DNA of 64,000 nt from NCBI GenBank assembly GCA_020859945.1, contig JAJBVG010000083.1, forward strand, positions 21,659 through 85,658. Reading direction: 5' to 3'. The stretch is from Clostridiales bacterium (GTDB taxonomy: Bacteria; Bacillota; Clostridia; Oscillospirales; Oscillospiraceae). How positions within the stretch are numbered: the first letter of the stretch is position 1; each line of letters opens with the position of its first letter. Of this stretch, positions 2-45,579 are shown one piece after another. The notes below the pieces were generated by a model, which worked only from the letters and a program-made list of their open reading frames with translations, was not told the DNA's origin and did no database searches. A program made the translations under genes and the position numbers.

Positions 2-2218
2 CTGTTCGTCAACAAAATGGACCTGGCGGGGACTGATCGGAAGGCGCTGACCGCCGACCTGAAACGCCGCCTGGATGAGAATTGCGTCCCCTTCGGCGGC
101 GGGGAGAGCGAAGCCCTTTGGGAGGAGCTGGCCCTCTGCGACGAGGCGCTGATGGAGCAGTATCTGGACACCGGCGCGATGGAGGACGAAGCGATAGCGG
201 GAGCCATCGCCCGCCGGCAGGTGTACCCCTGCTACTTTGGCGCGGCGCTGAAGCTGGAGGGGGTGGAGGCCCTGCTGGACGGGTTGGAGCGGTACACTGT
301 CTCTCCCACGTATCCGGCAGAATTTGGTGCGCAGGTCTATAAAATCGCCAGAGACAGTCAGGGGAACCGGCTGACCTACCTGAAAGTCACCGGCGGCAGT
401 CTGCCGGTGAAAACTGCCCTCTCCGGTGGGACGGAGGAAAACCAGTGGACGGAGAAGGTGGACCAGATCCGCATTTATTCCGGGGCCAAATACACCACCA
501 CCCCGCTGGCCCAGGCGGGGACGGTCTGCGCCGTCACCGGCCTGACCCATACCCGCCCCGGACAGGGCCTGGGCGGGGAAGAGGACGCCGCCCTGCCCCT
601 GCTGGAGCCGGTGCTGACGTATCAAATCCTTCTGCCCCCGGACTGCGACCCCAACGTCGCCTATTTGAAACTGAAAGAGCTGGAGGAGGAGGACCCCCAG
701 CTGCACATTCTCTGGGACGCCCGGCAGCGGAGCCTCCACATTCAGCTGATGGGACAGGTGCAGCTGGAGGTGCTGAAAAGCATGGTGGCCAGCCGCTTTG
801 GGCTGGGGGTGCGCTTCGGCCCCGGCGCCATCGTCTACAAGGAGACCATTCAGGCCCCGGTGGTAGGGGCGGGCCACTTCGAGCCGCTGCGCCACTATGC
901 GGAGGTTCACCTGCTGCTGGAGCCGGGGGAGCCGGGGTCCGGGCTGGTGTTCGACAGCCTTTGCAGCGAGGACGTGCTGGACCGGAACTGGCAGCGGCTG
1001 ATTTTGACCCATTTGGAGGAGAAAACCCACCTGGGGGTGCTGACTGGCTCCCCCATCACCGACATGAAAATCACCCTGCTCACCGGCAGGGCCCACGAGA
1101 AGCACACCGAGGGCGGCGACTTCCGTCAGGCTACCTACCGGGCGGTGCGGCAGGGGCTGATGCAGGCCCAGTCGGTGCTGCTGGAACCCTGGTACGCCTT
1201 CCGGCTGGAGCTGCCCCAGGAGAATCTGGGCCGGGCCATGGCGGACATCCAACTGATGGCAGGCAGCTTCGACCCGCCGGAGCTGGAGGGCGACCGGGCC
1301 ATTTTGACCGGCAGCGTGCCGGTGGCGACCATGGGGGACTACCAGACCCAGGTGGCCGCATACACCAGAGGCCGGGGTCGGCTCTCCTGTGCCCTCCAGG
1401 GCTACCGCCCCTGCCACAACCAGGACGAGGTGGTGGCCCAAATCGGCTACGACCCAGAGGCGGACGTGGAGAACACCCCCGACTCGGTATTCTGCTCCCA
1501 CGGGGTGGGAACCATCGTCAAATGGGACCAGGTGAAGGACCACCTGCACCTGGACAGCGGCGTTTCCTTTGAAACCGAAGCGGACGGAGAACCGGAACCG
1601 ACCCCGTCCGCGCCCCGGCAGAGCGGCGGCATCACTGCGGGGGACAAGGAATTACAGGCCATTTTTGAGAGGACCTACGGCCCGGTGAAGCGGCGGGACT
1701 TCCGTCCGCAGAAAGAGGTCAACGCGCCCACAGGCGGCGGAGAGAAAAAACGCGCTCCCCAATGGGATGGGGAACCTGTGAAAGAATTTCTGCTGGTGGA
1801 CGGCTACAATATCATCTTCGCCTGGGACGAGCTGAAAGTGCTGGCGAAGGAGGACCTGTCCGCCGCCCGGCAGTCCCTCATCGAGACGCTCCGCAACTAT
1901 CAGGGCTGCCGGGGCTGCGGCCTGATTCTGGTATTCGACGCCTACCGGGTGCCCCACAACCCCGGCTCAGTGGAGAAGCTGGATAATATTTATGTGGTCT
2001 ACACAAAACACGCTGAGACCGCCGACATGTACATCGAAAAGGTGACGTATGAAATTGGCCGGCGGTATCGGGTCCGGGTAGCCACCTCCGACGCGCTGGA
2101 GCAGGTCATCATTTTGGGCCACGGGGCCACGCGGGTCTCCGCCCGGATGTTCCGGGAGGAGGTGCGGCAGGCGGAGGCCGACCTGCGGCGGAGAATTGAA
2201 GAACACAACCAATCCTGA
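2..2218 (+). CDS. Translation-factor GTPase (TetM/TetO/EF-G-like), 5'-truncated by the window edge, fused to a C-terminal Rae1/YacP-type NYN ribonuclease domain
   Basis: The frame is open from the window edge. The first codons, LFVNKMD, contain the NKxD (G4) GTPase motif. The next ~500 aa are collinear with TetM/EF-G domains II-V. nt 1784-2215 encode LLVDGYN, LVFDA, ETAD and VATSD, the YacP/Rae1 NYN motifs. Stop codon at 2216-2218. Confidence 0.8.
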   Translation: MFVNKMDLAGTDRKALTADLKRRLDENCVPFGGGESEALWEELALCDEALMEQYLDTGAMEDEAIAGAIARRQVYPCYFGAALKLEGVEALLDGLERYTVSPTYPAEFGAQVYKIARDSQGNRLTYLKVTGGSLPVKTALSGGTEENQWTEKVDQIRIYSGAKYTTTPLAQAGTVCAVTGLTHTRPGQGLGGEEDAALPLLEPVLTYQILLPPDCDPNVAYLKLKELEEEDPQLHILWDARQRSLHIQLMGQVQLEVLKSMVASRFGLGVRFGPGAIVYKETIQAPVVGAGHFEPLRHYAEVHLLLEPGEPGSGLVFDSLCSEDVLDRNWQRLILTHLEEKTHLGVLTGSPITDMKITLLTGRAHEKHTEGGDFRQATYRAVRQGLMQAQSVLLEPWYAFRLELPQENLGRAMADIQLMAGSFDPPELEGDRAILTGSVPVATMGDYQTQVAAYTRGRGRLSCALQGYRPCHNQDEVVAQIGYDPEADVENTPDSVFCSHGVGTIVKWDQVKDHLHLDSGVSFETEADGEPEPTPSAPRQSGGITAGDKELQAIFERTYGPVKRRDFRPQKEVNAPTGGGEKKRAPQWDGEPVKEFLLVDGYNIIFAWDELKVLAKEDLSAARQSLIETLRNYQGCRGCGLILVFDAYRVPHNPGSVEKLDNIYVVYTKHAETADMYIEKVTYEIGRRYRVRVATSDALEQVIILGHGATRVSARMFREEVRQAEADLRRRIEEHNQS

Positions 2219-5075: not shown

Positions 5076-6449
5076 ATGAGAAAAATACGTTTTAGCGTTC
5101 TGTTTGTCCTGACTCTTTTCTGCTGCGGTCTGCTGGCGGTTCCCGCCCAGGCAGCGGAATATACCCCCGTCACCTCATCTGAGCTGGTCAGTGATATGGA
5201 GGTCAACTGCGGCTCCTGCCTGCTGGTGGAGATGAACACCGACGCCGTCCTCTACGGCCAGGACAACAGCGAACAGATCTACCCGGCCAGCGTCACCAAG
5301 ATCCTCACCGCGCTGGTGGTGCTCCAGCACGTCAAGGCGGGGGACCTGGAAATGGACACCGTTGTCACCGCCAGCGACACCTTCAAACAGGGGCTGACCT
5401 CTCAGGCGGCGCTGGGCAACATCGCCACCGGGGAGCAGCTGACGGTGCGGAGCCTACTGTATATGCTCCTGCTGTCATCCCACTGCGACGCAGCCAACGT
5501 GCTGGCCGAGGCGGTCAGCGGGTCCATTGAGGACTTCGCGGAGGAGATGAACGAGACCGCCGCCGACTTGGGCTGCACTGGTTCCAACTTCGTCAACCCC
5601 AGCGGCCTGCACAACAAAAACCACTACACCACCTGCGACGACCTGTACCGCATCGCCAAGGCCGCCTACCAGTTCAAAACCTTCCGAAAGATCATCGGCA
5701 CCACGTCCTACACCGTCCCCGCAACCAACGTCTCCGCTGCGCGGAAGCTGTACAACACCAACGCACTGATCAGCGACCACTCCTATTCCAACTACCTCTA
5801 TGACTACTGCGTGGGCGGCAAGACCGGCTCCACCTATCTGGCGGGGTACTGTCTGCTTTCCTTCGCGGAGAAGGACGGCGAGACCCTGTGCTGCGTGATG
5901 ATGGGCTGCAACTGGCTCATCAACCTGGACGGCAGCCGGGACCGGCTGCAATTCTCCGAGAGCGTCCGGCTCTACGAGTGGGGGTTTGAGAATTTCAGCC
6001 CTGTGACGCTGGTGGAGGAAGGCTCCGCCCAGGCCACGGTCCAGGTAGAGGACGGCAAGGACGCGGACTCCGTGGAGCTGCTGGCCTCCGGCAGCCTGAC
6101 CACCTACCTGCCCAACGACGTGGACGCTGCCGACCTGACCTATGAGACCGAGCTGCCCGACTCCATCCAGGCCCCCGTCACCGCCGGGGAGACGGTGGGG
6201 ACGCTGACCATCTCGCTGGACGGCGTCACCTACGGCACAGTGGAGCTGCTGGCTGCCGAGGAGGTGGAGCGGCTGCCCCCCATTTTGACCCACCTCCGGT
6301 CCCTCAGCGAGACCGCCGAGCCGTTCCCCACAGCCGCCGTGGTCGCGGGGAGCCTTGTGGGGCTGGTGCTGCTGTTCTTCCTGGTGCAGGCCCTCCGGCG
6401 ACGGTATCACCGCCGACAGAAGCGGCGGCGCTCCCCGAATAACAAATGA
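5076..6449 (+). CDS. D-alanyl-D-alanine carboxypeptidase (S11, PBP5/DacB-like), membrane anchored
   Basis: N-terminal signal/TM segment, SxxK motif (ASVTK), KTG motif (GGKTGST), C-terminal TM helix and a basic tail. Confidence 0.85.
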   Translation: MRKIRFSVLFVLTLFCCGLLAVPAQAAEYTPVTSSELVSDMEVNCGSCLLVEMNTDAVLYGQDNSEQIYPASVTKILTALVVLQHVKAGDLEMDTVVTASDTFKQGLTSQAALGNIATGEQLTVRSLLYMLLLSSHCDAANVLAEAVSGSIEDFAEEMNETAADLGCTGSNFVNPSGLHNKNHYTTCDDLYRIAKAAYQFKTFRKIIGTTSYTVPATNVSAARKLYNTNALISDHSYSNYLYDYCVGGKTGSTYLAGYCLLSFAEKDGETLCCVMMGCNWLINLDGSRDRLQFSESVRLYEWGFENFSPVTLVEEGSAQATVQVEDGKDADSVELLASGSLTTYLPNDVDAADLTYETELPDSIQAPVTAGETVGTLTISLDGVTYGTVELLAAEEVERLPPILTHLRSLSETAEPFPTAAVVAGSLVGLVLLFFLVQALRRRYHRRQKRRRSPNNK

Positions 6450-6479
6450 AATCCATTGCTCCGTGAGAGGATTTTTCCA

Positions 6480-7868
6480 ATGAAAAAACGTTCCTTTTTT
6501 TCCCTGTTTCTGATGTTGGCCCTGGTGGTCTCCATGCTGACCCCCACCGCAGCCGCCTCTTCCTCTGCGATACTGGACGATATGGAGATCGATGCCCAGG
6601 CCGCCCTGCTGGTGGACATGGACACCGACGTGGTGCTCTACTCCAACAATGCGGACGAGGCCATCTGCCCCGCCAGCCTGACCAAGGTGATGACCGCCCT
6701 GCTGGTCTTTGAACACATCGAGGCGGGGGATCTGTCCCTGGACGACAAAATCACCGCCTACGACGACTGCTGGTTTGACCTGGACTCCACCTCCAGCAAC
6801 CAGAACATCCAGCCCGGCGAGGTCATGACGGTGGAGGACCTGCTCTACTGTATGCTGGTGGCCTCCGCGAACGAGGCGGCCAATATCCTGGCCGAGACGG
6901 TCAGCGGCTCCACCGACAGCTTTGTGGAGGAGATGAACACCCGCGCCAAAGCGCTGGGCTGCACCAACACCAACTTTGTCAACACCCACGGGATGCCCGA
7001 CGACGACCACTACAGCTCTTGCAGCGACCTCTACCTGATTGCCAAGGCCGCCATGGGCTACAGCACGTTCCGGGAGATCGTCTCCACCACGGAGTATTAC
7101 GTGGATGCCACTAACCTCTCGGAGAAGCGGCACTTTTTCAACACCAACGGTCTGCTCTCCAACCTGCGTTACAGCGGTTACGTGTACAGCTCCTGCATCG
7201 GCATCAAGACCGGCACCACCGACGAGGGGGGCTACAACCTGCTGGCTGCGGCGGAGCAGAGCGACAAGACGCTGATTTCTGTAGTCATCGGCTGCGAGCC
7301 CACCACCGCGTCGGACGGCACGGTCAACTACACCCACTTCTCTGAAAGCTCCCGGCTGCTCCAGTGGGGTTTTGACAACTTCTCCACCATCACCATCGTG
7401 GACAAGAAGGACACCTACGGCTCGGTCCCCGTCACCCTGTCCACCGACGCGGACTCGGTCAGCGTGGCCCCGGAGGAGAGCATCGAGGCAGAGCTGCCCA
7501 ACGACATCACCGCTGACAGCTTCACCGTCGTCCCCACCCTGCGCAGCTCGGTAGAGGCCCCCGTGGAGGCGGGCGACGTGCTGGGGACCCTGGTGCTGTA
7601 CCTGGACGGCGAGGAGTACGCGGCGGTGAACCTGATTGCCGTCAACGACGTGGAAGCCTCCGTGTTCCTCAAGCGCAGGGCTATGGTGTTGGACCTGCTC
7701 TCCCGCTGGTATATCAAGGCGCTGCTGGTCCTTGTGGCGGTGGCGATCCTGGCGCTGATTTTGCGGCTGACCCTGTTCCGCAAGGTCCGGCGCAACCGCT
7801 ATGGCAGTTACTCCGGCGGACGGCGCAGCGGCGGCGGCTACCGGGGCAGTCGGCGGCGGAGACGGTGA
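6480..7868 (+). CDS. D-alanyl-D-alanine carboxypeptidase (S11), paralogue of the upstream gene
   Basis: I chose the ATG at 6480 (MKKRSFFSLF...), preceded by GAGAGGA, over the TTG at 6456. Motifs: SxxK (ASLTK) and KTG (IKTGTT). There is a C-terminal TM helix and an Arg/Gly-rich tail. Confidence 0.85.
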   Translation: MKKRSFFSLFLMLALVVSMLTPTAAASSSAILDDMEIDAQAALLVDMDTDVVLYSNNADEAICPASLTKVMTALLVFEHIEAGDLSLDDKITAYDDCWFDLDSTSSNQNIQPGEVMTVEDLLYCMLVASANEAANILAETVSGSTDSFVEEMNTRAKALGCTNTNFVNTHGMPDDDHYSSCSDLYLIAKAAMGYSTFREIVSTTEYYVDATNLSEKRHFFNTNGLLSNLRYSGYVYSSCIGIKTGTTDEGGYNLLAAAEQSDKTLISVVIGCEPTTASDGTVNYTHFSESSRLLQWGFDNFSTITIVDKKDTYGSVPVTLSTDADSVSVAPEESIEAELPNDITADSFTVVPTLRSSVEAPVEAGDVLGTLVLYLDGEEYAAVNLIAVNDVEASVFLKRRAMVLDLLSRWYIKALLVLVAVAILALILRLTLFRKVRRNRYGSYSGGRRSGGGYRGSRRRRR

Positions 7869-8087: not shown

Positions 8088-11990
<3,903 letters not shown>

Positions 11991-12012
11991 ATCTCAATTT
12001 ACCTCCTCGCCT

Positions 12013-15000
12013 TTATTCTTCATCGTCATCCATGCCATCGCTGAGGCCGTCAGCGTCGTCGGTGATAAAATCGCCCTCTTCAAACTCCACGTCGGAGGTC
12101 ACGCTGCCGTCGGTCTCCATCTTGCCAGTGGTGAAGCCGTGGCTGGCGTACTCGCTGTCGCCGCCGCCAGCGTTGGAGTTGGGATAAGGTGCGAAGTCGT
12201 CGTCGTCAAAGCGGCGGCCAGGCTGGATGACATCATCATCGTCATCGTCTTTCAGTTCCACTTCGTTGCCGTCCTTGTCCAGCACGCGAACGTCCAGACA
12301 CAGGGCCTGCAACTCTTTCATCAGCACCTTGAAGGACTCCGGCACACCGGGCTTGGGTACGTTGTGGCCCTTGACGATGGCCTCGTAGGTGCGGACACGG
12401 CCGGTCACGTCGTCGGACTTGACGGTCAGCATCTCCTGGAGGCAGTAGGCTGCGCCGTAGGCTTCCAGCGCCCAAACCTCCATCTCGCCGAAGCGCTGGC
12501 CGCCGAATTGGGCCTTGCCGCCCAGAGGCTGCTGGGTGACCATGCCGTAAGGCCCGGTGGAACGGGCGTGGATCTTGTCGTCTACCAGGTGGTGGAGTTT
12601 GAGGAAGTACACATAGCCCACGGTGACGGGGTTGTCGAACCGCTGGCCGGTGCGCCCGTCGTACAGCCAGCTCTTGCCGTTTTCGTTCAGACCGGCCTGT
12701 TTCAGCAGGTCCTGAATGTCTTTCTCGGTGGCGCCGTTGAAGATGGGGGTGGCCACCTTCCAGCCCAGGGCTTTGGCGGCGTAGCCCAGATGGACCTCCA
12801 GCACCTGACCGATGTTCATACGGGAGGGCACGCCCAGGGGGTTCAGCACGATGTCCAGGGGGGTGCCATCGGGCAGGAAGGGCATATCCTCCACAGGCAT
12901 GATGCGGGAGACCACGCCCTTGTTGCCGTGACGACCGGCCATTTTGTCGCCCACGGAGATCTTCCGCTTCTGGGCGATGTAGACCCGGACGCACTCGTTG
13001 ACGCCGGGGCCAAGCTCGTCGCCGTTCTCGCGGGTGAACACCTTCACGTCGATGACGGTGCCGTACTCGCCGTGGGGGACTTTCAGGGAGATGTCCCGGA
13101 CCTCACGGGCCTTCTCACCGAAGATGGCCCGCAGCAGCCGCTCCTCGGCGGTCAGGTCGGTCTCGCCCTTGGGAGTGACCTTGCCCACCAGGATGTCGCC
13201 GGCACGGACCTCCGCGCCCACGCGGATGATGCCCCGCTCGTCCAGGTCTTTCAAGGCGTCCTCGCCCACGTTGGGGATATCGCGGGTGATCTCTTCGGGG
13301 CCGAGCTTGGTGTCCCGGGCCTCCAGGTCGTGTTCCTCGATGTGGATGGAGGTGAACACGTCCTCCTTCACCATCCGCTCGCTGAGCAGGACGGCGTCCT
13401 CGTAGTTGTAGCCCTCCCAGGTCATGAAGCCCATGAGGATATTCCGGCCCAGGGCGATCTCACCGTTGCAGGTGGAGGGGCCGTCGGCCAGAGTCTCGCG
13501 CTTTTTCACCCGCTGGCCCACGTCCACGATGGGGCGCTGGTTGATGCAGGTGGTGTGGTTGGAGCGGAGGAACTTGGTCAGCTTGTAGGTTTTCACGTCG
13601 CCCCGGTCATACCGGACGGTGATGGCGGTGGCGTCCACCCGCTCGATGACGCCGTCGTCCTCGGCCAGCACGCAGACCTCCGCGTCCTGGCAGTTTTTGT
13701 ACTCCTGACCGGTGGCCACGATGGGGGCCTCGGTGACCAGCAGCGGCACAGCCTGCCGCTGCATGTTGGCGCCCATCAGGGCGCGGTTGGCGTCGTCGTT
13801 CTCCAGGAAGGGGATCATGGCAGTGGCCACGGAGACCATCATCTGGGGAGACACGTCCATATAGTCCACCCGCTCCCGATCCACATCGACGATCTCGTTC
13901 TGGTGGCGGCAGGTGATACGCTTGTTGGCCAGACAGCCGTTCTCGTCCACCGGCTCGGTGGCGGGGCAGACGATGAACTCGTCCTCGATGTCGGCGGTCA
14001 TATAGGTGACTTCGTCGGTGATGAAGCCGGTCTCTTTGTCGATGCGGCGATAGGGGGCCTCGATGAAGCCGTATTTGTTCACCCGGGCGTAGGAGGCCAG
14101 GTAGGAGATCAGGCCGATGTTGGGACCTTCGGGGGTCTCGATGGGGCACAGACGACCGTAATGGCTGTAGTGAACGTCACGCACGTCGAATCCGGCCCGC
14201 TCACGGGACAGACCGCCGGGGCCAAGGGCGGAGATACGGCGCTTGTGGGTCAGCTCGGCCAGAGGGTTGGTCTGGTCCATGAACTGGCTCAGAGGGGAGG
14301 AACCGAAGAACTCCTTGATGGCGGCAGTGACGGGACGAATGTTGATGAGGGACTGGGGAGTGACGATGTCCAGGTCCTGGATGGTCATACGTTCCCGGAT
14401 GACCCGCTCCATGCGGCTGAAGCCGATGCGGAACTGGTTCTGGAGCAGCTCACCCACGCAGCGCAGGCGGCGGTTGCCCAGGTGGTCGATGTCGTCCTTG
14501 GTGCCGACGCCGTGGGCCAGGCAGTTCAGGTAGTTGACGGAGGCCAGCATATCGTCCACGATGATGTGCTTGGGAATCAGTTCCTCGATGTGGTCCTTGA
14601 GCTGCTTTTTCAGCTCGTCGCCAGAGTAGGTCTCGTACAGCTCTTTAAAGACGCTGAACCGGACGGGGACGCTGATGCCGATTTCCTCCGGGTCGAAGTC
14701 CACATAGCCGCTGATGTCGATCATGGAGTTGGCAAAGACCTTGACCGCCTTGCGGTCCTCCGCCCTGTCGCCCACCATGATTACGACCTCGTTGACGCCC
14801 CGGTTGGCCATCTCGCGGGCGCGCTCCCGGGTCAGCACCTCGCCGGGCATGGCGATGATCTCGCCGGTCCAGGGGTCCACCACCGGCTGGGCGATCTCCC
14901 GGTCAGCGATGCGGCGGGCGATGTCCATCTTCTTGTTGAACTTATAGCGGCCCACGTCGGACAGGTCGTAGCGCCGGGAGTCGAAGAACATGGACTGAAT

Positions 15001-15759
15001 GAGGCTCTCGCAGGAGTCCACCGTGGGAGGCTCGCCGGGGCGGAGCTTGCGGTAGATCTCCAGCATGGCGTCCTCGTAGGTCTTGCAGGTGTCCTTCTCC
15101 AGAGTGGAGACGATGCGCTCGTCCTCGCCAAAGACCTCCAGAATTTCGGCGTCGGTTTTCAGGCCGATGGCCCGCAGCAGGCAGGTGACGGGGATCTTGC
15201 GGTTTTTGTCGATGCGGACGTAAAAGGTGTCGTTCACGTCGGTCTCATACTCCAGCCATGCGCCCCGGTAGGGGATGACGGTGGTGGAATAGATGACGTT
15301 GCCCGCCTTGTCCATGTCCCGGCCATAGTACATGCCGGGGGAACGGGTGATCTGGGAGACGATGACGCGCTCCGCGCCGTTGATGACGAAGGTGGCGCCC
15401 TCGGTCATCAGCGGGAAGTCGCCCATAAAAATTTCCTGCTCTTTGATCTCGTCGGTCTCTCGGTTGCGCAGACGGACATGGACCTTGATGGGGGCGGCAT
15501 AGGTGGCGTCCCGGGCCTTGCACTCCTCCACGTTGTACTTGGGCGGTTCGTTCATGGTGTAGTCCACGAAGGTCAGCTCCAGATTGCCCTGGTAGTCGGT
15601 GATGGCGCCAACGTCCTTAAAAACCTCCCGCAGACCGGTTTCCAGGAACCATTTGTAGCTTTTCTTCTGGATGTCCAGCAGGCTGGGCATGTCGATGATG
15701 GTCCGTTTCCGTTCGAAGCTCCTTCTCAGGGTGTTGCCGAAGTAGACTTCTTTGATCAT
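12013..15759 (-). CDS. rpoB: DNA-directed RNA polymerase subunit beta
   Basis: Start set at the internal ATG ([15 protein letters not shown]...), since the 49 codons upstream in the track ORF run into a repeat element. Conserved RpoB blocks run throughout, for example [10 protein letters not shown]. There is an acidic C-terminal tail. Confidence 0.97.
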
Positions 15760-15788
15760 AGATGAATCACACTCCGATTTCCGTAGAT

Positions 15789-15952
15789 TAGGAATCTCTG
15801 ATGAAATAACTCCCGGCGTCTGGACGGCACATTTCGTGCAACTCTTCGTTGTAAAATCTTGAAATACACAAAGTATTCCTGCGATTTTACGCCTCGATTT
15901 GCGCAAAATCTGCTCGCCCAGCCATCCAGGGTCATTTGCTCAGAGCTTCCTT
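15789..15952 (-). mobile_element. MITE-like 164 bp element, copy 1, with its sense strand on the minus strand, inside the rpoB leader
   Basis: Its reverse complement aligns without gaps to 53047-53210 at 155/164 identities; the central 127 nt have 1 mismatch. The terminal inverted repeats match at about 15/19. Confidence 0.7.
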
Positions 15953-16351: not shown

Positions 16352-16948
16352 ATGAACGACGCACGACCCCAAAAGCCTCTGGACCGGCGCCAGAGAAAGA
16401 CCCGTCAGGCCATCCAGAACGCTCTGCTGACCCTGATGCGGGAAAAATCGATGGACAAGATCACGGTCAGCGAGCTGGCCGCCACCGCGGATGTCAACCG
16501 CAAGACCTTCTATAACCACTACTCTAACATCCAGGAGGTCCGGGACGAGCTGGACCAGGAGTATATCGATCGGATTTTTTCTCTCTTGAAAACCGCCCAC
16601 GAAATGGAGCAGTCGCCCGCCCCGGACGTGATGATCGAGTCACTGGTCAACGGTCTAACGGAGAATCCCACCCGGACCAGGCTGCTGTTTGAGTCGGGGG
16701 AGCACCTCTACCTGATTGAACGGCTCAAGGAGCTGACCACGCCCTATCTGGAACAGCGGGCCACCACCCCTCAGCGGGCGGCCAGCCTCCCCTACGTGCT
16801 GGATTACGTCACCTACGGCATGATGGCGCTGCTCAACACCTGGATTCATGCAGAAAATCCCCTTTCGCCCCAGGAGATGAGCCGCCTGCTCACGATGCTG
16901 CTCCAGTCCAACGCCTCCGCCGACACCGTCGGCTCTCAGGAGGACTGA
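16352..16948 (+). CDS. TetR/AcrR family transcriptional regulator
   Basis: N-terminal HTH region: RKTRQAIQNALLTLMREKSMDKITVSELAATADVNRKTFYNHY. Confidence 0.85.
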   Translation: MNDARPQKPLDRRQRKTRQAIQNALLTLMREKSMDKITVSELAATADVNRKTFYNHYSNIQEVRDELDQEYIDRIFSLLKTAHEMEQSPAPDVMIESLVNGLTENPTRTRLLFESGEHLYLIERLKELTTPYLEQRATTPQRAASLPYVLDYVTYGMMALLNTWIHAENPLSPQEMSRLLTMLLQSNASADTVGSQED

Positions 16949-44612: not shown

Positions 44613-44844
44613 GCGCGAACGAAAAACAAACCCTCCGTCCGTATGACCGGGCAGAGGGCTTGTTTTTAAGGAAGGAATATAATGAAAAAGAGAGAGGCAC
44701 AATCAACAAGAGGGAGATTCATTGATTGCTTGTATGTATCTTAGCACAGCCCGCTCCGGAATGTTTGAAGGGTTTGCAAAGAAAATATGAATCTTTTGTG
44801 AATGTTGCGTTTTGTCGCCATGCTGTCCCGTTGGGAGGAAATTT

Positions 44845-45579
44845 ATGCAAAAAACGGTTTTGATTACCGGCGCCAGTCGTGGCATCGGCGCGGCGACGGC
44901 CCGCCGCTTCGCCCGGGAGGGCTGGCGGGTTGCCGTCCACTACCACCGCTCAGAGGAGAAGGCCCAGGCCCTGTGCCGAGCGCTGGAACCGACGGCGTTC
45001 CCCGTCCGGGCGGACGTTTCCAGCGCCGAACAGGTGAACGCCATGGTGGAAACTGTGCTGGACGCTTTCGGCCAGTTGGACGCGCTGGTGTGCTGCGCCG
45101 GGATCGCCCTGCCGGTGGGCCTGCTCCAGGACTGCACTGATGAGGACTGGGCGCGGGTGTTCGCCGTGGACGTGAACGGGGTGTTTTACCCCGTTCGGGC
45201 GGTGCTGCCCCACATGATCCGCCGCCAGGCGGGACGCATCATCACCGTGTCCTCCATGTGGGGGCAGGTGGGCGGTTCCTGCGAGGTGCCTTACTCCGCC
45301 GCCAAGGGTGCGGTCATCAGCTTTACGAAAGCTCTGGCCAAGGAGATCGGCCCCAGCCACATCACCGCCAACTGCATCGCCCCCGGCGTGATTCAGACAG
45401 ATATGCTCGCCGAGTTCTCCCAGGAGACGCTGGACGGCCTGGCAGAGGACACTCCCCTGGGGAGGCTGGGAACGCCGGAGGATGTGGCGAACCTGGCCTG
45501 TTTTCTGGCGGGGAAGGAGGCCGGATTTATTACCGGTCAGGTGTTTGGGGTCAACGGGGGCCTTGTCTGCGGGGGATAA
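44845..45579 (+). CDS. SDR family oxidoreductase (3-oxoacyl-ACP reductase FabG-like)
   Basis: ATG after GGGAGGA. Motifs TGASRGIG and YSAAKGAV. Confidence 0.8.
   Translation: MQKTVLITGASRGIGAATARRFAREGWRVAVHYHRSEEKAQALCRALEPTAFPVRADVSSAEQVNAMVETVLDAFGQLDALVCCAGIALPVGLLQDCTDEDWARVFAVDVNGVFYPVRAVLPHMIRRQAGRIITVSSMWGQVGGSCEVPYSAAKGAVISFTKALAKEIGPSHITANCIAPGVIQTDMLAEFSQETLDGLAEDTPLGRLGTPEDVANLACFLAGKEAGFITGQVFGVNGGLVCGG

Follow-up and report, generated by a model that had tools for sequence, protein, structure and literature searches.

Introduction

What might a bacterium do with a protein that carries, in one chain, a GTPase of the elongation-factor type and an endoribonuclease? The question is raised by the left end of a 64,000-nucleotide (nt) stretch from a Clostridiales bacterium of the Oscillospiraceae (assembly GCA_020859945.1, contig JAJBVG010000083.1, positions 21,659 to 85,658 of the forward strand), referred to below as the window. 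A first-pass annotation, made from the sequence alone, described the open reading frame (ORF) at this edge as a TetM/EF-G-like ribosomal GTPase fused to a nuclease of the Rae1/YacP type. We show here that the gene encodes a distinct member of the EF-G/Tet branch of translational GTPases, to which a NYN nuclease of the YacP/Rae1 type is joined.

The architecture as such is known and will not surprise specialists familiar with Pfam architectures. Fusions of a TetM-like GTPase with NYN_YacP have been described before (Atkinson 2015, BMC Genomics, PMC4342817; Matelska et al. 2017, Nucleic Acids Research, PMC5499597); both studies left the function open, and the published extent of these fusions is 'ten species' or 'some Clostridia'. 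With its N-terminal GTPase, C-terminal NYN_YacP domain and origin in the Clostridia, the window protein has the identical architecture, and its gene is another member of this catalogued family, which is real, large and well conserved. New over the published notes are the far larger size of the family, a domain IV tip that is not Tet-like, an extension after domain V, a linker motif and the existence of GTPase-only relatives. A full-text literature search, outside which Leroy 2017 and Condon 2018 lay, found no functional characterisation of the fusion, as the first-pass annotation had also stated.

One reading frame joins a translational GTPase to a NYN nuclease

Translation of nt 2-2218 (+) gives 738 sense codons followed by a TGA stop, with no internal stop and with the left edge open, which confirms the single uninterrupted ORF beginning at an NKMD G4 motif that had been reported; the N-terminal residues in the window are LFVNKMD. 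Residues are numbered by this ORF of 738 amino acids (aa) unless stated otherwise, and P0001 numbering refers to an 873-aa relative, the closest one in the databases, which is 94% identical across the 738 aa of the window. The N-terminus beyond the window edge is supplied by full-length relatives, in whose alignment the motifs G1 (AHVDAGKTT), G2 (RGITI) and G3 (DTPGH), thought from the start to lie past the edge, are intact, and full-length P0001 matches the Pfam family GTP_EFTU with E=6.7e-49. Within the window ORF Pfam recognises EFG_IV (aa 276-390, E=9e-19) and EFG_C (aa 392-474, E=1.4e-17), with weaker matches to EF-G_D2 (aa 108-185) and EFG_III (aa 223-273). By Foldseek and Pfam the body is a five-domain EF-G fold, and the window together with its 94%-identical full-length relatives displays the G-II-III-IV-V architecture of translational GTPases of the EF2/EF-G branch.

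The C-terminal module had been assigned to the YacP-type NYN nucleases on account of its acidic motifs, and the profile search bears this out: NYN_YacP matches aa 597-737 with E=8.4e-47 and 159.7 bits against a cut-off of 24.6. All four motifs were found at the expected places, and their catalytic Asp codons are those of D600 in LLVDGYN (nt 1799-1801), D646 in LVFDA (nt 1937-1939), D675 in ETAD (nt 2024-2026) and D697 in VATSD (nt 2090-2092). Judging from these sequences, the GTPase and the nuclease halves both look catalytically competent.

The region between the two enzymes differs from its first description. A body of about 500 aa collinear with EF-G and Tet proteins had been proposed; this holds for domains II to V, but the collinearity ends at about aa 468, and aa 468-517 form an extension of their own. 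Likewise, the Pro/Glu/Gly/Lys-rich linker is real as a tether (nt 1553-1783), but it is not uniformly of low complexity and holds a conserved motif, DKELQAIFERTYGPVKRRDF.

The fusion is widespread and stable in gut Clostridia

A fusion seen once at a contig edge could consist of two neighbouring genes merged by a sequencing or assembly error, and the linker, being low-complexity and GC-rich, is of the sequence type that is prone to indel errors. We therefore give weight to the family as a whole. When one genome per bacterial species was scanned with the domain IV-V region, which is specific to the family, the matches came to at least 600 stretches, 599 of them confirmed; locus counts refer to the best 80. 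The same single ORF stands in 78 of these 80 independent species-representative genomes, one locus is interrupted by a contig end and one is unfused. Thousands of database proteins unite GTP_EFTU, EFG_IV, EFG_C and NYN_YacP in one chain of about 860-900 aa, and complete isolate genomes of Pseudoflavonifractor and Oscillibacter are among the fused relatives. A search of 1.84 billion cluster representatives returned 150 top matches that all have E<=5e-196, with identity down to 42%; the NYN domain is present in about 145 of 151 aligned sequences, and the fused state is found in more than 140 separate clusters at 50% identity. Because DKELQAIFERTYGPVKRRDF is conserved at the protein level, the reading frame is fixed across the linker. 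For the family the artefact reading is already refuted, and a merging error has next to no probability left.

Carriers belong to the Oscillospiraceae, the Lachnospiraceae (Dorea, Blautia, Mediterraneibacter, Herbinix, Butyrivibrio and others), Ruminococcus, Anaerotruncus and the Acutalibacteraceae, and Monoglobus and Agathobacter rectalis also have the fusion, which is widespread and stable in gut Clostridia. The gene is chromosomal, solitary and vertically distributed. In one database member, P0037 (1040 aa), the end of domain IV together with domain V occurs twice in tandem within the chain (LTHLEEKEH...PVSLMRGY twice; A1 columns ~600-730), a duplication that could be either real or an assembly artefact.

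Three GTPase-only relatives were found overall. They have the same tip loops and the same extension and stop just after the extension; the stops are real and no NYN gene lies nearby. Two of them are P0261 (656 aa; L011 4001-5971), on a contig of 98 kilobases (kb), and P0245 (706 aa; L012 3832-5952). The third (L050 3639-5771) is an ORF of 710 codons from stop to stop; the 628-kb contig that carries it has a guanine-cytosine (GC) content of 61%, is labelled Bifidobacterium tibiigranuli and may be either truly actinobacterial or mis-binned. The identity of this ORF to the Clostridia family is about 71-72%, the same as that of two loci with Prevotella sp. labels (L054 and L062), and it was treated separately on account of the size and GC content of its contig; the two Prevotella-labelled loci look like bin contamination. 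Because such unfused relatives exist, the GTPase subfamily forms a unit of its own, to which the nuclease has been added and become fixed in most Clostridia members.

The coordinates of all parts of the window gene are collected in Table 1.

Table 1. Parts of the fusion gene at the left edge of the window, in window coordinates.
Feature	Position (nt)	Strand	Basis and remarks
C-terminal part of the G domain, with short Tet-like G' region	2..316	+	Begins at the NKMD G4 motif (nt 11-22); G1-G3 past the left edge
EF-G-like domains II and III	317..826	+	Weak Pfam EF-G_D2/EFG_III matches; confident AlphaFold model of P0001; Foldseek top matches are EF-G structures
EF-G-like domain IV	827..1171	+	Pfam EFG_IV; highest conservation among the family's domains
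Domain IV tip loop GHFEPLRHYAEVH, family-specific, near-invariant	872..910	+	Conservation; unlike EF-G (QSGGRGQYG) and Tet(M)
Domain IV tip loop GRAHEKHTEGGDFRQ	1085..1129	+	Replaces YGLYYSPVSTPADFR of Tet(M)/Tet(O) and DGSYHEVDSSEMAFK of EF-G (alignment)
EF-G-like domain V	1175..1402	+	Pfam EFG_C
Conserved 50-aa extension after domain V (YRPCHNQ...DSVFCSHGVG...KWDQV)	1403..1552	+	Column conservation, model confidence
Variable acidic Pro-rich linker segment, predicted disordered	1553..1642	+	Column conservation 0.12; pLDDT <50
Conserved linker motif DKELQAIFERTYGPVKRRDF, 20 aa, low-confidence predicted helix, candidate docking motif	1643..1702	+	Alignment columns
Variable basic Gly-rich linker segment, predicted disordered	1703..1783	+	Column conservation 0.17; pLDDT <50
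YacP/Rae1-type NYN endoribonuclease domain	1784..2215	+	Pfam NYN_YacP, Rae1 match, Foldseek
TGA stop	2216..2218	+	Next gene, a GH36/melibiase-like glycosidase, begins 17 nt on at 2236

The GTPase half compared with Tet proteins and EF-G

Most members (P0001-P0120, L100) bear the name 'TetM/TetW/TetO/TetS family tetracycline resistance ribosomal protection protein', given by the Prokaryotic Genome Annotation Pipeline (PGAP) of NCBI, while some records have the neutral name 'translation factor GTPase family protein'. The name implies that the fusion is a tetracycline ribosomal-protection protein with an acquired nuclease, a possibility also raised by Atkinson (2015), who placed the family in the Tet subfamily (PMC4342817). 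Several features agree with this. The best NCBIfam match is the tet_protect model, and like Tet(M) and Tet(O) the protein has five EF-G-like domains, a short G' region, from which the EF-G G' insertion is absent in both groups, and a C-terminal tail after domain V; the residues DFR after the domain IV loop are shared as well.

The quantitative comparison points the other way. Tet(M), Tet(O) and the EF-G of C. difficile each share 27% identity with the protein, and TetB(P) shares 33%. On the two NCBIfam models of the ribosomal protection proteins (NF012153/NF033148), the scores of full-length members are 389-415 bits with tet_protect against a cut-off of 775, about half of what is required, and 254-270 bits against 1100 with the TetM/W/O/S model, so that the members named after this latter family score about a quarter of its cut-off. 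The loop of Tet(M) and Tet(O) that contacts tetracycline, YGLYYSPVSTPADFR, is replaced by TGRAHEKHTEGGDFR: where Tet proteins have the dislodging loop III, (Y/F)(Y/F)SP(V/A)STPADFR, the family has an invariant RAHxKHTEGGDFR instead of YYSPVSTPADFR, and only DFR is common to the two. Tet genes are carried on transposons or plasmids, are patchily spread and often have a leader peptide; the fusion is a solitary chromosomal gene in variable contexts in about 85 loci, with no transposon or plasmid around it, no known leader RNA upstream in 11 loci and at least 600 matching stretches in the species set, and it carries a nuclease. A role in tetracycline protection is on these grounds very unlikely, and the description of the GTPase half as 'TetM-like' was overstated. 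Because of the scores below cut-off, the 27% identity and the replaced loop, the PGAP name is an over-annotation, and gut-metagenome resistome surveys that rely on names may over-count tetracycline resistance genes.

The protein is equally distinct from EF-G. Although it shares the overall fold (Foldseek top E=1e-53), the G motifs and a His that lines up with the one in the domain IV tip of EF-G (EF-G GSYH, fusion GRAH), it has no G' insertion, both of its domain IV loops differ, and full-length members reach 246-340 bits on the EF-G models (TIGR00484, NF009381) against cut-offs of 583-659. In a Pseudoflavonifractor locus (L002) a separate EF-G-like gene of 692 aa lies about 7 kb from the fusion gene.

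Conservation of the domain IV tip, the extension and the tether

Column counts were taken in an alignment of 151 representatives of 50%-identity clusters, with identity down to 42%. G1, G3 and G4 are conserved in 98-100% of them, and each of the four NYN aspartates is kept in at least 143 of the about 145 representatives with a residue there, the rest being gaps (at least 99%). Column conservation of this kind indicates that both enzymatic halves are under joint purifying selection.

The strongest constraint falls on domain IV, with a mean column conservation of 0.685 versus 0.48-0.59 in the other folded domains. Inside its tip loop GHFEPLRHYAEVH lies EPLRHYAEV, the most conserved 9-mer of the protein (score 0.96), which the locus-finding tool picked as a diagnostic pattern. 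In the second loop KHTEGGDFR has a conservation of 0.91, with H503 in 148 and D508 in 149 of the 151 representatives (P0001 numbering). Thus GHFEPLRHYAEVH and GRAHxKHTEGGDFRQ match the P-loop in their level of conservation, and the tip of domain IV is, by its sequence, distinct from those of both Tet proteins and EF-G. Such a constraint on domain IV agrees with its making a specific contact with the decoding centre.

The extension after domain V matches no Pfam family. EF-G lacks it, and the C-terminal tail of Tet proteins can be aligned with no more than its first part. It is also present in the unfused relatives. In P0001 numbering its best columns are S630, F632 and G636 (147 of 151 each), followed by C606 and C633 (131 each), H635 (113) and H607 (90). 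The predicted local distance difference test score (pLDDT) of the extension is 86-90 in the full-length AlphaFold model and falls to 47-67 when it is modelled without the GTPase body; because the confidence falls in this way, the extension probably packs on the GTPase body. An independent fold was considered and set aside, since the model loses confidence without the body and the PDB offers no match; it is probably not an autonomous domain. A zinc site was considered as well: the Cys and His residues (C471, H472, C498 and H500 in the window) are often conserved but not invariant, and we make no claim that metal is bound.

The tether, which spans the stretch between the extension and the NYN domain, has a median length of 79 aa in the 78 fused loci and is disordered according to AlphaFold pLDDT. 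A disordered tether of this length would allow the nuclease to act away from the docking site. Its motif DKELQAIFERTYGPVKRRDF was found in 72 of the 78 fused loci and was absent from the three unfused relatives examined; in P0001 numbering the best columns are E685 (134 of 151), I689 (133) and G695 (116), and the helix predicted at 680-694 has a pLDDT of about 50.

The nuclease domain and Rae1

The NYN module aligns with residues 2-140 of B. subtilis Rae1/YacP (PDB 5MQ8/5MQ9; E=5e-22, 38% identity), where D600, D646, D675 and D697 are equivalent to D7, D53, D81 and D104; the catalytically dead Rae1 mutant is D7N D81N (PMC10351889). In an AlphaFold model of nt 1403-2215 the NYN domain has a pLDDT above 90, and 5MQ8/5MQ9 are the sole significant PDB matches, with a Foldseek template modelling (TM) score of 0.71-0.76 and a root mean square deviation of 2.2-3.4 Å. 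The module exceeds the gathering score of PF05991, has GYN after the first Asp together with the four Asp (the criterion of Matelska 2017) and shares the Rae1 fold; the Pfam match spans profile positions 1-143 of 166. Rae1 is a free protein of about 170 aa that ends in basic helices, and its gene lies in the cysS-mrnC-rlmB-yacP-sigH region; the module of the fusion, by contrast, forms the C-terminus of a chain of about 870 aa, follows a disordered tether and occurs in unrelated gene contexts. The stand-alone NYN gene of C. difficile lies in the order cysS-mrnC-thyX-rlmB-NYN-sigH, and a protein search with its product gave 120 top matches that are all from Peptostreptococcaceae. No second copy of the NYN domain was found in the window by tblastn, nor was a second NYN gene seen in the 80 species loci, with about 10 kb sampled per genome.

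On ribosomes that have stalled or collided, Rae1 cleaves messenger RNA (mRNA) and thereby feeds trans-translation (PMC12407103, PMC10351889, PMC13622287). A preprint of September 2026 reports Rae1-dependent tagging by transfer-messenger RNA (tmRNA) after collisions, linking Rae1 to collided ribosomes; it surveys the distribution of Rae1 and does not mention the fusion (PMC13622287). The first-pass annotation had built on cleavage in the ribosomal A site. This premise is outdated: the original model, in which the crystal structure was docked in the A site, has been withdrawn by the discoverers of Rae1, who now place the cut 12 nt upstream of the A-site codon (both in PMC12407103).

The relocated cut bears directly on the idea that the GTPase places the NYN domain in the A site for a RelE-like cut of the A-site codon, an idea that the original docking favoured. 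The conserved extension, if it packs on the GTPase body as the models suggest, would also speak for it. So would the path of the Tet(M) C-terminus, which returns toward domain IV and the decoding site. However, domain IV of EF-G and of the Tet factors fills the 30S A site; because of this occupancy a tethered NYN domain is unlikely to sit there too, and there would be no room for its 145 aa. The long disordered tether likewise argues for action away from the anchor, and we regard A-site delivery as improbable.

Genomic context

In the window the fusion gene is followed by the gene of the GH36-like glycosidase and two genes of D-Ala-D-Ala carboxypeptidases, and then by rpoC and rpoB on the opposite strand; the remainder is ordinary chromosome. 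The neighbours in relatives are dnaG-rpoD in Oscillibacter, an ArsR-type regulator in Pseudoflavonifractor and unrelated genes elsewhere. Clustering of the flanking ORFs of the 80 loci revealed no conserved neighbour on either side of the gene, the commonest family occurring in only 9 loci. In a 97%-identical relative the gene is preceded by a terminator-like hairpin and has its own promoter-like region, and Rfam found no known RNA leader upstream of the gene in 11 loci. The context is the pattern of a solitary core gene and not that of a mobile resistance or defence determinant.

This pattern also bears on the suggestion, made in the first-pass annotation, of an anti-phage or toxin-like effector that shuts off translation. 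Nuclease-NTPase fusions are common in defence systems, and in Agathobacter rectalis (L100 2970-3478, -) a toxin-antitoxin pair of the BrnT/BrnA type (CopG antitoxin) lies directly upstream of the fusion gene, although it was not seen in other loci. On the other side, PADLOC gave 0 matches, none of about 85 loci has a mobile-element or defence-island context, and 2.9 million viral contigs contain just 6 marginal matches, mostly near contig ends. The spread over many genera of at least two large families, Oscillospiraceae and Lachnospiraceae, is broad, housekeeping-like and typical of core genes. A defence function is very unlikely, about as unlikely as one in tetracycline protection.

Some further observations concern the surroundings of the gene. 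The tandem carboxypeptidase paralogues lie at 5076-7868 (+) in the window and on the opposite strand in the P0001 contig (L001 5416-8408, -), which suggests a local inversion between close relatives at this pair. The rpoC-rpoB genes (8088-15906, -), 6 kb from the fusion gene, have no rplJ-rplL upstream of rpoB; a divergent TetR-family gene (16352-16948) is found there. Long ORFs antisense to rpoC/rpoB and to other genes (8211-12044, +; 12139-15765, +; and similar ones) are an artefact of the 59.5% GC content and not genes. At 44812-45579 (+) lies an ORF that exceeds the curated NCBIfam cut-off for YmfI, the EF-P 5-aminopentanone reductase (265.9 bits against 238), and the organism may therefore modify EF-P like B. 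subtilis; EF-P modification bears on polyproline stalling, which is among the triggers of Rae1 cleavage.

A possible role in translation surveillance

That the protein is a ribosome-delivered nuclease, as first proposed, is a reasonable reading of the sequence, because the architecture is real and both halves look competent. We propose that it serves as a housekeeping translation-surveillance factor: a Rae1-type mRNA endonuclease, gated by guanosine triphosphate (GTP) and docked at the factor site, that would act on stalled or collided ribosomes. From the sequence data and from analogy with known factors we assign this role a rough probability of one half.

The GTP form would dock at the ribosomal factor-binding site like EF-G and Tet(M), with the G domain on the sarcin-ricin loop and domain IV directed at the 30S decoding site, where the tip loops GHFEPLRHYAEVH and GRAHxKHTEGGDFRQ might probe the A site and the mRNA and transfer RNA (tRNA) state of a stalled ribosome. 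The tethered NYN domain would cut the mRNA outside the A site, on that side of the bound ribosome where the entry channel lies. When two ribosomes have collided, the cut would fall in the mRNA that leaves the leading, stalled one at its rear, where free Rae1 reportedly cuts: if the factor bound the trailing ribosome, which is in the rotated pre-translocation state that EF-G normally recognises, the entry-channel side would face the outgoing mRNA of the leading one. GTP hydrolysis would then free the factor, and the truncated mRNA would pass to tmRNA-mediated rescue. We infer ribosome binding, an mRNA and not a ribosomal RNA (rRNA) substrate, the position of cleavage, the coupling to GTP and the link to collisions and tmRNA. 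The proposed role resembles that of SmrB in E. coli and Cue2 in yeast, which cleave mRNA where ribosomes have stalled or collided and thereby clear the path to rescue; these differ from the fusion in having an SMR instead of a NYN fold and in being recruited via the disome interface or ubiquitin, with no fused translational GTPase.

Several points weigh against such a role. Free Rae1 works without a GTPase, and the tether may have another purpose. The existence of GTPase-only relatives implies that the GTPase has a function that does not need the nuclease. In the clade of the window the last ~23 positions of the NYN_YacP profile, which correspond to the basic C-terminal helices of Rae1, are missing. 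The ribosome geometry is reasoned by analogy from published EF-G and Tet(M) complexes, and the substrate could be rRNA rather than mRNA.

An rRNA-directed factor, whose GTPase would dock so that the NYN domain cuts rRNA in a late maturation check or in the turnover of damaged or surplus ribosomes, is the main rival, though an unlikely one. An anchor at the factor site would put the nuclease beside rRNA. In eukaryotes the PIN nuclease Nob1 cuts 18S rRNA in 80S-like particles with the GTPase eIF5B, which may be counted as a precedent. Furthermore, the position of the stand-alone yacP gene beside mrnC and rlmB led to the first prediction for YacP, a part in rRNA/tRNA processing; Matelska (2017; PMC5499597) argues in this way, and the same arrangement was seen in C. 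difficile. By contrast, all published substrates of the homologue Rae1 are mRNAs, cut in a translation-dependent manner; in 80 of 80 loci the fusion gene is unlinked to rRNA-processing genes; and a tether of about 79 aa would be needless for a target beside the docking site.

Beyond the role in mRNA surveillance itself, and with clearly less confidence, we consider it possible that the family represents a separate GTP-gated branch of bacterial ribosome quality control, in which a dedicated EF-G-like sensor reads one particular stalled state via its invariant domain IV tip and licenses the tethered Rae1-type nuclease to cut the mRNA only after that. Such a sensor might recognise an A site that is empty or blocked or, in a collision, the rotated ribosome that trails. 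If this were true, the fusion would be the first factor-site GTPase known to deliver a nuclease and a natural 'tethered Rae1' that shows where enzymes of this type act on the ribosome, and the GTPase-only relatives, such as the one on the Bifidobacterium-labelled contig, would represent the ancestral sensor without the nuclease.

Significance for gut Clostridia

The family, which exposes a systematic mis-annotation as tetracycline resistance, occurs in a large fraction of the Clostridia that dominate the human gut and the rumen, among them Lachnospiraceae, Oscillospiraceae, Ruminococcus and their relatives. Since the fusion physically joins two things that present research seeks to connect, a Rae1 nuclease and a defined ribosome docking site, a structure or a cleavage map of it could show how and where Rae1-type nucleases engage ribosomes.

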